A stretch of 64,000 nt of DNA from Styela clava (lineage: Eukaryota): the NCBI RefSeq assembly GCF_964204865.1, contig NC_135261.1:17732001-17796000 (forward strand). The letters run 5' to 3'. The position numbers were made by a program, and so were the translations under genes. This document shows, piece after piece, positions 34,973 through 42,414 of this stretch (position 1 is its first letter; every line of letters begins with the position of its first letter). The notes under the pieces were generated by a model. The model ran no database searches, was not told where the DNA came from, and saw only the letters and a list, made by a program, of their open reading frames with translations.

Positions 34973-36401
34973 ATGAAGTTGTTTCCACGGGTAGAAATTG
35001 CGGAAAGCAATGATGATTCTGATTCAGAAAAATCAGCCAATTCAATTTCGTCTGCCGAAGATATTCAACAAACACCATGTGTTTCGGGAAAATATTTCCC
35101 TCTCAGCCTCCCGAACATTGCTGCTTCTATGGAAAGATTAAAGAATATGTTAAATTTTGTGCAACAACGTTCTAATACGACACCGATGTTCCCTCTACCT
35201 GTTCCCACCCTTGGATCAACCCAAATTTCAACAGTTTGCGATGCTTTGGCGGAAAATGGAGACATCGAAAGGCTTGCTCGATTTTTGTGGTCCCTGCCCG
35301 CGACACCTTCAATTATGGAAGCTTTGCAAACAGACGAATCAATTTTAAGAGCAAGAGCACTTGTAGCATTTCATCAAGGTAACTTTAGAGAAGTCTATGG
35401 TATTTTGGAACAACATAGATTCACTGATGCTGCATGGCACCATCGATTGCAAGCGATGTGGTTAGAAGCTCATTATCAAGATGCCGAAAGATCACGAGGC
35501 CGTTCACTTGGTCCAGTTGACAAATACAGAATAAGAAAAAAGTTTCCATTACCGAGAAGTATTTGGAATGGAGAACAAAAAAGTCATTGTTTCAAAGAGA
35601 GAACAAGAAATTGTCTTCGAGAATCTTATCTCCGAGATCCATATCCAAATCCGAGCAAAAAGCGTGAACTTGCAAGATTAACTGGTCTTTCGCCTACTCA
35701 AGTTGGAAATTGGTTCAAAAACAGAAGACAGAGGGATCGTGCTGCTGCTGCGAAAAATAGGTAAGCTTGTTTAAATAAACATAAAAGATCTTTGAAACGT
35801 ATCAATTCCATATTATCATTCTATTTCAATTTTGATATTTTTTTCTTTATGGCGCAAAAGCTTGACTATAAATACCTTTATTCCATTTGCACATTTCTAT
35901 ATTCGTATTTGCTCTATGGCTCATACATATTTTTACCTTTTTTTTAGAGTTATGCACCACGAACAAAATGGCGGAGATCACATGTCGTCGACATTAAATA
36001 TTCAGCAAGGTACAACGCGACAAAATTCGATCGAAGAACAACTGAATCACTACAGAGAGCTATCAAGTCCAGGCGATCTCGATACTTCTAAAAATGTATT
36101 AGGATTTTCAACGCCATCTCCAACTCTTAATGATCAAAATACGTCAACAGAACTGATGATGTCATCGATGTTTCGTCAAAAAACTAATGATTCCTCACCG
36201 CAAAAAAATTCGGAGAATTCAGAGCGTTCAGCATTTGCTGAATTCAGTAAATCTTCGAGTTTTATGTTAAATCACCATGCGTTTCTACCCTTTGGAGACA
36301 CTTTGGGTAGCCGCAACAATCCCAACTTCAGAAATACTTTCGGATCCCCGGAAAAAACCATCGACAACACCGACGCACAAAATTTGAATATTCACAAATA
36401 A
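34973..36401 (+). CDS. Six3/6: Six3/6 homeobox transcription factor, paralog A (exons 34973-35760, 35948-36401; ~413 aa)
   Basis: Six domain [14 protein letters not shown]...[20 protein letters not shown], homeodomain [11 protein letters not shown]...[10 protein letters not shown] and the Six3/6-diagnostic tail AAAAKNR. Phase-2 GT-AG intron directly after KNR; AATAAA at 36526. Confidence 0.95.
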
Positions 36402-38278
36402 TACTACAAGATTTTTGTTATTGTATAATTTACTCAAATATCCAGATAACAACATATGGATGAACTGTTTCTTTGAATAATTTCAAAATAATAATTTTGA
36501 ATAATTTGAATTAATAATAATAATGAATAAAAATAATTTCACGTTGAATATACAACCTACAAATCGTCATAATAAGATATGAGAGTTGTTTGTATTCGTG
36601 AATGCGTTGCATAATGTAGTTTTTATCAGATTTTAAAAGAATTCATTCGTATTTTATTTCTGAATGAATTATGTCGAATTTGAAATGGAGCACTCATTGG
36701 AATGTTTTTTTCATATTGTAATATAACTGGTAACTTTTATAATAATAAATACTGATGTATGAACAAAAAAGTTGCATTGGCGTGATTCAATGGTTTCGTT
36801 AGTTTATAGCTATAACAATAAAATCACAATTTAGTTGAATAAACTATTTGCTTGAATTGTTTGTTTCGAATTCAAAACGTTGGGTTTTGGCCAAGTATCA
36901 TGCAGCAGAAAAACAAAATCAATATTAATTTTTGTAATGGTGTAGTGGGTAAGGATATATCACAAATTCTATCTCAGTTTGATTCAAAATTGACACGAAC
37001 TCTTGTGTAACCTAATCCAAAACAGAAGTCTAAAATTTTTGTCAATACTTTATTAAAGTATCTAAATCATTTAATATTTTTTTCTTTTAATAATATGATT
37101 TTATATACTCTTATTTGGTGAGAAGGCAGATCAGCAGAAGGTATACCAGAATACAGTTACTTACCATACATATATTAGTGCTTTAAAACACGCGTGCGAA
37201 AGAAAGATTAAGTTTAGTCCCCACAGACGAAAATTGAGAATTCATATTAATTTTAGCTTTATGAAATAATCTATTATTTTGTTGCTGTACAATCAATCGC
37301 AGTCAATTATTTCCTAAATTCGAATACTGCTCGGAAAATTTATTTGGTATCTTGTGCTGAACAAAAGTGCATAGTATAACTTGCAATCCACACTCAACAT
37401 TTAGCTCATTTCACAAAATAATCGACTCTCAGTTTAATGGAAAATATAGCATCCTGTCCACGGCCATGTTTGTGGACAATAAGACTTTTAAATTTGTTGC
37501 GGGGCGGTATTTTTAAGTTAAGAGATTGAGCCCTGATCAAACTCAATGTTTCGTAAAACTTAAATATCAAAGGTCGTTGAGGATTTAAACATCGACAATA
37601 TGGCGTCTCTCCATCAAAATATTGAATGGAGGGGAATATGAGCTCAGCAGGTTTAGAGCAGATATAATGTGTCATAGAGCTTGTAATAACGACATCAGAT
37701 TTTCTATTGAGTCTGCGTTAAAAAAGAAGTAAAACACCAACAACAGGGCTTCGTCTCTTAGATAGACAATCTGACTATATTCTACTGCGATTTAAATTTC
37801 ATTGACGCATTTTTATTTTGACGAAACTTAGTTTGAGCTATTCTAGTACACAAATTTATTACACTTTAAATAATCTTTAAATGAAAACAATTAGCTATAA
37901 AATTAAATTCACACGATAAATCGTATGTTATGTATAATGTCAACAACGTGCTAAATTACAGTACATAATAAAATACACTTTAGTCAAATTATCTATATAC
38001 AGGATTTTGCCATAATTTCATGCCCTAATATAATAACGCATCAATATTCTATATGCGATAAAAAATTAGTAATCTATCATTTTATTTTATACACAATAAA
38101 TAAAATTGTACTTTTCAATTTATCCCCAAATCTCGTTGTTTCCCACAATATGTAAACATGTATATTGTGGATGATTAGTTAACACTTTAAATTGTTGTGA
38201 TTTTAAACATATTTTGATTTCATTGTTGGGAAAACAAGTTAATCCCATAAAAACACAATAAAAATTAATTCCGTCCCG

Positions 38279-38426
38279 TTGTCATCCCACTCGAAGTAAA
38301 TGAAATAAATAGCATTAACACCGTTGATGCGTGATTAAGGTATTAGGGATTTAAATTTATTTCCGCTGTGAAGATTCAACACATGTCGTGCTCAGGTGAT
38401 GTACTTAACCCATGAAATAATTACCG
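38279..38426. promoter_or_regulatory. Distal conserved non-coding block upstream of Six3/6 B
   Basis: Paralogous to 30847-30984. Confidence 0.7.
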
Positions 38427-40636: not shown

Positions 40637-40662
40637 GAGAAAAAATAGGGATTAGACGTCAC
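40637..40662 (+). promoter_or_regulatory. Proximal motif of Six3/6 B: GGATTA plus CRE-like GACGTCA
   Basis: GAGAAAAAATAGGGATTAGACGTCAC, about 247 nt before the ATG. Confidence 0.6.
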
Positions 40663-40883
40663 GAAAATTCGACTATATTAAGCGAAATCTCTGAGATGAT
40701 TGAGCAATTCTTCGACATTAGTATCCTGAGTAGTTTTATTTGTAGAATGCTTGGCAGCCATTTTATGAACTGTTAGTCACTTGGGGTTTTTGCACATATA
40801 TTGAATCTCTTTTATGTTAAATCTCTTTTATGTATTGTATTAAAAAATTTTATAGTATATAGTGAAAATATTGGCTATAAAAC

Positions 40884-42414
40884 ATGAAGTTGTTTCCACG
40901 CGTAGAAATCGTAGAATCGAGTGAAGATTCTGATTCTCGAAAATCGTCAACTACCTCAAACTCTTTCGATGATATTCATTCAACTTTCCCTATGATAGAA
41001 AAGGTTTCTCAGGCCAATATTACTGCTTCCATGGAAAGAATTAGAACAATGTTGAGTTTACTTCAAAGATCTTCGCAAACTCCGATATTTCCTTTCCCTG
41101 TTCCGACCCTCGGTTCAAATCAGATTGCAAAAGTTTGCGATGCCTTGGCAGAAAATGGAGACATTGAGAGACTTTCTAGATTTTTGTGGTCTCTTCCAGC
41201 AACACCAGTAATTATGGAAGCTTTGCAAACAGACGAATCAATTTTAAGAGCAAGAGCACTTGTAGCATTTCATCAAGGTAACTTTAGAGAAGTCTATGGT
41301 ATTTTGGAACAACATAGATTTACTGATGCTGCATGGCACCATCGATTGCAAGCGATGTGGTTAGAAGCTCATTATCAAGATGCTGAAAGATCACGAGGCC
41401 GTTCACTTGGTCCAGTTGACAAATACAGAATAAGGAAAAAGTTTCCATTACCGAGAAGTATTTGGAATGGAGAACAAAAAAGTCATTGTTTCAAAGAGAG
41501 AACAAGAAATTGTCTTCGAGAATCTTATCTTCGAGATCCATATCCAAATCCGAGCAAAAAGCGTGAACTTGCAAGATTAACTGGTCTTTCGCCTACTCAA
41601 GTTGGAAATTGGTTCAAAAACAGAAGGCAAAGGGACCGTGCTGCTGCAGCTAAAAACAGGTTGGTTGTATAAAAGTATTTTTTTGCTTCTCGTAAAACTG
41701 GTCGATGTCAATATCTTGTCATTCCAAAAATATAATCGCGTCACCAAAAATGTGACAAGTTGAATGGCCACTTACAGCACAAACAGCTCCGCTCTTTTTT
41801 TGAATTTACGAGATATGGATTGCGTGGCACATCAAGTGTGCAACCACCAAAAATATTTAAACTTTTAAAAATAAAGACGTTAACTACGTTTATCAATAAA
41901 TATGCACAATCTACAAAAAAAAACTCTATAACTAACTCATGATTATTTCAGACTTATGAACCACAAACAAAATGGCGACGACCAACTTTCGCCAACGTCG
42001 GGGATTTATAGGCTTGGTGGAGAAGAAAAATCGTCTGAAGAGCGGCTAAATTATCAAAGACAAGCGTCAACCTCGGACGATCAAAGCTCTGTTGAGAATC
42101 ATACAACTCAATATTTAACACCTTCCTTGGCCGCAGCGGGATTTGCAGAAGCATCAAGCGAAATGTTGCCTCCGGTATATCGATCCAATTGTAGTATTTC
42201 TCCAATGACAATGATTCTAGATAAATCACGACATGTGCAATTTCGCAAATCTTGTGATTCATCAACTGTGTTGAATAATTTCGACTCCTTCTTACCTTAT
42301 CACGGCAAATCTGATTATCCAAGCAATAAACATTTTTCAAATTCCTTGAGATGTTTGGAATCAGCACACAGCAAGGCAAATGCTCGAGAAATGAATGACA
42401 ACAAAAATGTTTGA
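40884..42414 (+). CDS. Six3/6: Six3/6 homeobox transcription factor, paralog B (exons 40884-41659, 41952-42414; ~412 aa)
   Basis: Same domains and same intron position and phase as paralog A. Exon 2 is open and starts [13 protein letters not shown] ([14 protein letters not shown]); AATAAA at 42474. Confidence 0.95.

Follow-up and report, generated by a model that had tools for sequence, protein, structure and literature searches.

A near-identical core in two tandem Six3/6 genes of Styela clava, very probably due to interlocus gene conversion

Two Six3/6 genes in direct tandem

The window analyzed here is a stretch of 64,000 nucleotides of the Styela clava genome (contig NC_135261.1, positions 17,732,001 to 17,796,000), in which two Six3/6 homeobox genes, copies A and B, share a nearly identical core. 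Both are two-exon genes on the + strand, arranged in direct tandem 5.9 kb apart, and they correspond to the S. clava RefSeq proteins XP_039251903.1 (413 amino acids) and XP_039251904.2 (412 amino acids). Their parts are given below in window coordinates; X1, X6 and X8 are sequencing runs described further on.

34973..35760, + strand: Six3/6 copy A, coding exon 1 (N-terminus, SIX domain, homeodomain) of a 413-amino-acid protein; exon 1 is 100% identical to XP_039251903.1
35761..35947, + strand: copy A intron, phase 2, GT..AG, unalignable to the copy B intron; the spliced join appears as a loose end in the probable RNA runs X6 and X8
35948..36401, + strand: copy A coding exon 2, sharing 39 of 150 aligned residues with B; synonymous divergence (dS) about 1.6
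40884..41659, + strand: Six3/6 copy B, coding exon 1 of a 412-amino-acid protein matching XP_039251904.2
41660..41951, + strand: copy B intron, 292 bases, GT..AG; its joint is present in X6 and X8 contigs and absent from the DNA run X1
41952..42414, + strand: copy B coding exon 2, supported by the joint in X6 and X8 contigs and by alignment to A

Copy A carries a SIX domain (PF16878, E 1.6e-43) followed by a homeodomain (PF00046, E 1.9e-12), with near-equal values in copy B; the Pfam limits in copy A are residues 83–195 and 206–256, respectively. Among the matches listed, the closest named ortholog was Halocynthia roretzi Six3/6 (BAD02833.1), and among the best 120 of 2440 matches the top named non-Styela proteins of like architecture were Six3/6 and SIX6. 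A DNA search of the species' own genome returned only two close copies, A and B, together with two distant Six loci on another contig (C2), which we take to be Six1/2 and Six4/5. The domain architecture, the closest named relatives and the presence of other Six genes elsewhere place A and B in the Six3/6 subfamily. Both introns were removed in X6 and X8, and both genes are probably spliced and expressed. According to the available part of a previous study, Six3/6 marks the anterior proto-placode in Ciona and Botryllus (PMC10973136).

A 417-base tract with four silent differences

Bases 35311–35727 of copy A aligned without gaps to 41210–41626 of copy B at an offset of 5899, with mismatches at only 4 of 417 bases (A/B: 35422 C/T, 35485 C/T, 35536 A/G and 35632 C/T). 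All four are synonymous (TTC/TTT, GCC/GCT, AGA/AGG and CTC/CTT). A sequence-only reading of this DNA had reported a stretch of about 417 bp with four synonymous differences, and on recount its coordinates and codons were exact.

35311..35727, + strand: homogenised tract, copy A, residues 114–251
41210..41626, + strand: homogenised tract, copy B, gap-free alignment to the copy A tract
35309..35311, + strand: Ser113 in A (TCA) versus Val109 in B (GTA), a two-base replacement directly at the 5' edge; Ser in Halocynthia

The tract takes in 82 residues at the C-terminal end of the Pfam SIX domain, the linker that follows, and all of the homeodomain except the final 5 residues of its Pfam extent. 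It had been described as the DNA-binding core, which is right for most of that core; however, the tract starts 31 residues inside the SIX domain and ends inside the last homeodomain helix.

Silent differences were counted over codons that specify the same degenerate amino acid in A and B. There were 4 among 132 such codons in the tract, compared with 16 of 35 in the 5' flank (the 129 bases before the tract) and 6 of 12 in the 3' codons after it; the difference between 4/132 and the pooled flanks (22/47) was highly significant (Fisher p = 1.3e-11). The flank codons quoted earlier to illustrate dense third-position differences just outside the tract were also correct. The pair thus displays the local deficit of silent divergence between old paralogs by which a conversion tract is recognized. 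A free fit of two change points placed the boundaries at 35312–35725 with a likelihood ratio of 47.5, which was reached in 0 of 300 permutations (maximum 23.5), and the uncertainty of each edge was about 12 bases. The 5' flank showed no gradient, with 5/12, 4/12 and 7/11 silent differences going towards the edge. At the 5' edge itself, 7 differences cluster within 18 bases, the last of which is Ser113/Val109, a position that is variable in other ascidians too. At the other end, 33 bases separate the 3' edge from the unalignable intron.

The identity is present in the DNA

Collapse during assembly or polishing could have made the two cores look alike, a possibility raised in the sequence-only reading. 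Of the 15 listed sequencing runs, 7 were examined; each copy was covered by four of them, X11 serving for both. X1 keeps the intron and is thus a DNA run; X5, X6 and X8 come from one 2020 study, their RNA status being guessed; X11 was used as raw reads from a 2026 study.

The results spoke against a collapse. In all four same-species contig sets (X1, X5, X6 and X8), including the three probable RNA runs of the 2020 study, separate flank contigs of A and B merge into one 417-base contig with the edges seen in the window. Depth in X1 doubled, from 17.3 and 17.5 in the 5' flanks of the two copies to 35.2 in the tract. X5, X6 and X8 held no second, diverged core contig at 80% likeness. The X11 raw reads (16 and 14 reads placed, from about 6% of that run) included both flank types at the 5' edge, with 3 reads of B-type and 2 of A-type, and within the tract they had no listed variant other than the four known sites. 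Moreover, the core is unchanged in the older RefSeq version of B, which carries another allele at residue 19. In favour of a collapse, X1 is possibly the assembled sample and the other three contig sets share one study; contigs lose rare variants, the flank contigs overlap the tract by 30 letters, and the data are short reads and contigs. As the identity recurs in read-graph contigs and raw reads of this kind, we conclude that it lies in the DNA itself and that a collapse is very unlikely.

Over 40600–42500, X1 departed from copy B of the window by about 0.5% outside the tract, through 1 insertion and 7 substitutions. These changes include Arg19Gln, which was also found in X6, X8 and the older RefSeq version. 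Runs X9 and X10, which carry other organism labels, yielded fragments only and were unused as evidence of habitat or relatives.

The duplication is old

A uniform dS along exon 1, named in the sequence-only reading as an objection to conversion, was not seen: dS between A and B rose from 0.048 in the tract to 0.97 in the 5' flank and 1.37 in the N-terminus; exon 2, where the alignment is weak (39/150 identical), gave 1.56. The A and B introns did not align above shuffled controls. Over residues 83–113 of the SIX domain (31 positions), there are 5 differences between A and B, 5 between A and Halocynthia and 7 between B and Halocynthia; likewise, a tree of residues 44–113 gave an unresolved fork of A, B and Halocynthia with branches of 0.22, 0.19 and 0.30. 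These comparisons indicate that the duplication is old, the distance between A and B being nearly that of each to Halocynthia. At saturation, about 72 silent differences would be expected in the tract, compared with the 4 observed.

Alternatively, the duplication could be recent and the flanks alone could have evolved very fast, as the 99% identity of the core would suggest. Against this stand flank silent sites near saturation even in conserved codons, introns and most upstream DNA that are unalignable, and the three-way fork at residues 44–113. We regard a recent duplication as very improbable.

At the protein level, A and B have no differences over the 138 tract residues, while each copy differs from Halocynthia at 8. 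Scaled from the flanks, 4.8–6.7 amino-acid differences would be expected between A and B in the tract, and the probability of none is 0.001–0.009. This contrast suggests that amino-acid changes were homogenised as well, nearly all of them in the SIX domain, since 7 of the 8 differences from Halocynthia fall there. The homeodomain part differs from Halocynthia at 1 residue; it is indeed identical between the copies, as previously claimed, but that identity needs little explaining. With such a core, homeodomain-based trees would date an old duplication as very recent.

Silent constraint is an unlikely source of the tract

Another explanation is that the exon harbours a regulatory element, folds into an RNA structure or can be read in a second frame, and that each copy independently keeps the same nucleotides for that reason. 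In its favour are the odd third-position composition of the 417-base block and the ability of some exons coding for developmental proteins to act as enhancers as well. As a control, 54 of 80 metagenome Six-family loci gave one long stop-free alignment and thereby 1431 pairs, 60 of which were dropped (fewer than 20 comparable flank codons). Of those left, 1340 had a flank silent difference of at least 0.3, and the lowest tract value in this set was 0.23, versus 0.03 here, so that the loci of other animals lack such silent conservation; as the pairs are redundant and non-independent, this comparison gives a range and no p-value. The tract had no unusual RNA fold (z +0.9), and no second reading frame was found, with 5–9 stops in each of the other five frames; RNA structure and a second frame were ruled out on these grounds. 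The other-animal loci, the fold and the frames thus gave none of the signs of a synonymously constrained or dual-coding exon. Constraint would also have to hold 128 of 132 silent codons where about 72 would differ, and the tract carries four silent variants, which is at or above neutral heterozygosity. Taken together, we consider silent constraint quite unlikely.

Interlocus gene conversion as the probable source of the identity

We consider it highly probable that the near-identical core is due to interlocus gene conversion. This agrees with the recent or recurrent ectopic conversion proposed in the sequence-only reading. The available part of a paper on the general model of paralogs under conversion describes a need for pairing, an effect of distance and peaks of divergence around selected sites, and treats polymorphism shared by the copies as the main indication (PMC3924837).

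In a plausible mechanism, purifying selection would keep the SIX/homeodomain exon as the sole long stretch with enough similarity for pairing over the 5.9 kb. The paired exon could then serve as a repair template, and non-crossover repair would homogenise the segment, amino-acid changes included, while the rest of each gene diverges. Exchange would end where homology fails, at the 3' side near the unalignable intron and at the 5' side at the cluster of 7 differences in 18 bases with the Ser/Val replacement. If the tract is at equilibrium, its silent divergence of 0.046 would imply, as a rough estimate, that conversion outpaces mutation per site by a factor of about 20 or more. A crossover inside the tract would delete the equivalent of one gene; the persistence of both genes suggests that both sets of ends may be needed.

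Several points weigh against conversion, or at least against an ongoing one. No sister-species DNA with both copies was found in protein, profile and metagenome contig searches, which covered the best 120 of 2440 near-length proteins, the best 120 of 182 shorter proteins and a profile spanning all 266 columns. Within these, the Styela/Halocynthia-type motif occurred in 6 of 387 proteins retrieved and in none of the 80 metagenome-contig loci, and a search with the N-terminal region of B gave 2 of 78 candidates with that region, both from S. clava. Polymorphism with both alleles in both copies was not seen, at a raw-read depth of 1–5, in contigs that drop variants and with reads not all assignable to a copy. 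Flush edges that lack a gradient are as compatible with one large event as with recurrent exchange. Finally, conversion commonly raises GC, and the tract shows no GC enrichment.

Recent or recurrent conversion

The bases at the four variant sites were compared among samples. They were C, T, A, C in each of the four contig sets, whereas the window reads C, C, A, C in copy A and T, T, G, T in copy B. The C of copy A at 35485 was missing from all 3 raw reads and from every contig, including those of X5, where A outweighs B (depth 30.7 versus 11.2), and the T of copy B at 41531 was missing from all 4 raw reads. At the raw-read depth of 1–5, the differences at 35485 and at 41531 thus look polymorphic. 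By contrast, the T of copy B at 41321 was present in 2 of 3 raw reads of another sample. Heterozygosity in S. clava is 1.72% according to the available part of the genome paper (PMC7540406). At this level 1.5 silent differences would be expected between two alleles over the tract, compared with 4 observed (probability of at least 4, 0.065), and the four silent differences are compatible with allelic diversity.

The G+C content of third codon positions (GC3) was lower in the tract (24/132 in A and 22/132 in B) than in the rest of the genes (86/263 and 78/263; p = 0.003 and 0.005), and the dip persisted with stratification by amino acid (z -3.3). In the 30 best-scoring homeoboxes of the genome, GC3 was 509/1646 with a range of 0.20–0.46, and the tract values of 0.17–0.18 lie below all of them, although 18 of the 30 come from one expansion. 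In other animals, tract-minus-flank GC3 averaged +0.015 (standard deviation 0.083) and one locus lay at -0.18, which makes the dip a moderate one. The raised GC3 that GC-biased conversion would leave was not observed. Low GC3 hints that the tract may have had its own history over a long time; since it is not expected from a single recent overwrite, it counts for recurrence. Fourfold sites of the tract (8/50 G+C) also lie below the introns (0.25 and 0.32) and intergenic DNA (0.29).

A sub-case of conversion is a single, fairly recent long conversion or double crossover that was fixed in one copy, with no ongoing exchange. The edges fit such an event, being abrupt, with silent sites that are near saturation as far as the tract boundary and show no gradient; so does a divergence of 2–3 times heterozygosity, which could correspond to a neutrally fixed event, and the T at 41321 means that some differences may be fixed. 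On the other side, tract GC3 lies below the rest of both genes (0.30–0.33) as well as below all 30 homeoboxes, and the event would have had to start from pairing at about 85% identity. We regard a single event as possible but rather unlikely, and recurrent conversion as slightly favoured.

A further version of recurrent conversion would have it long-lived and pinned in place, at the 5' side by a selected Ser/Val difference and at the 3' side by the intron, so that two differently deployed proteins would co-evolve one core, driven to A/T against the usual GC bias. This version is unlikely. If it were true, Six3/6 pairs of the styelid type would offer a natural test of staying in conversion versus escaping it, since a related lineage (P0005 and P0006, described below) has the mirror arrangement, in which the ends are similar and the core has diverged.

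Comparison with known systems

The S. clava pair is a new example of a known process. Dlxa and Dlxb of Capitella teleta, in the available part of their description, are likewise linked homeobox duplicates with high nucleotide identity in the homeodomain region and a divergent remainder, and their identity was attributed to gene conversion by GENECONV (PMC3199776). That pair is inverted, tail-to-tail, and its 150-base tract includes an intron and does not differ in GC from the rest (PMC3199776). The Styela genes, in contrast, lie in direct tandem and share a 417-base, purely exonic tract of lower GC3 over most of the SIX domain. Hexapod engrailed and invected reportedly also undergo concerted evolution, as set out by Peel, Telford and Akam in 2006. 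In the part of a later paper that was available, these are ancient tandem homeobox paralogs whose ongoing conversion obscures orthology, which resembles A and B (PMC6444547). They are tail-to-tail and conversion was shown across species (PMC6444547), unlike A and B, which are head-to-tail and known from one species. Human red and green opsins resemble A and B in the low divergence held by conversion between close paralogs; however, the opsins, as far as the available text describes them, have a narrow divergence peak in a homogenised gene (PMC3924837), whereas A and B have a homogenised island in a diverged gene.

Compared with other members of the Six3/6 (Optix) subfamily, A and B have the same SIX1_SD and homeodomain architecture, and 130 of 138 tract residues are identical to Halocynthia. 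Styela has two tandem copies, while one protein each was present among the matches listed for Halocynthia, Ciona intestinalis (XP_002119543 being the Ciona relative in the comparison), C. savignyi and Clavelina, which does not imply a single copy in these species. No paper on the Styela Six3/6 duplication or its conversion was found in literature searches, although supplements may list both genes; the available text of the S. clava transcription-factor survey (PMC8122590) and of the genome paper (PMC7540406) makes no mention of a Six3/6 duplication.

For a chordate, the pair would be a remarkably clean case of partial concerted evolution affecting a developmental regulator. In practice, core-directed probes, guides for CRISPR (clustered regularly interspaced short palindromic repeats) and short-read counts cannot separate A and B. 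Given a heterozygosity of 1.72% and the sharp edges, population data could yield the conversion rate and its base bias directly.

Flanking and other observations

The upstream regions of A and B were unalignable except for one shared 27-base motif.

34727..34753, + strand: upstream motif of A, with GGATTA and GACGTCAC inside; local alignment score 42 versus 37 for the best of 200 shuffles
40637..40662, + strand: putative upstream motif of B, matching 34727–34753

GGATTA and GACGTCAC resemble Otx/Pitx and CRE sites, respectively.

Two proteins from Logan contigs, P0005 and P0006, are relatives that share the MKLxPxVxI N-terminus and show the reverse pattern, with 7 differences over 64 residues 5' of the tract and 21 over the 138 residues within it. 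The two may represent paralogs whose cores are diverging, or else orthologs from two species.

The expansion that supplies 18 of the 30 best homeobox matches of the genome consists of uninterrupted homeoboxes in two subgroups (L091, L093–L095, L097, L098, L100–L105, L107–L111 and L113, on contigs C3, C10, C13, C16 and C19). Its members are alignable within a subgroup over 1–3 kb at about 67–98% and resemble L088; presumably they are Not-like.

Elsewhere in the window, an intact open reading frame of 315 codons lies on the - strand at 50044–50991, in a block spanning 49012–50991, and carries what we take to be a methyltransferase-like motif. An 85% identical copy of this frame at 62233–62977 is broken by stops and frameshifts, and upstream pieces of the block recur at 56203–58069 (overall 56203–62977). 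Head-to-tail duplications are present at 43725–44804 (about 535 bases, 95%) and at 53321–53653 (about 164 bases, 98%).

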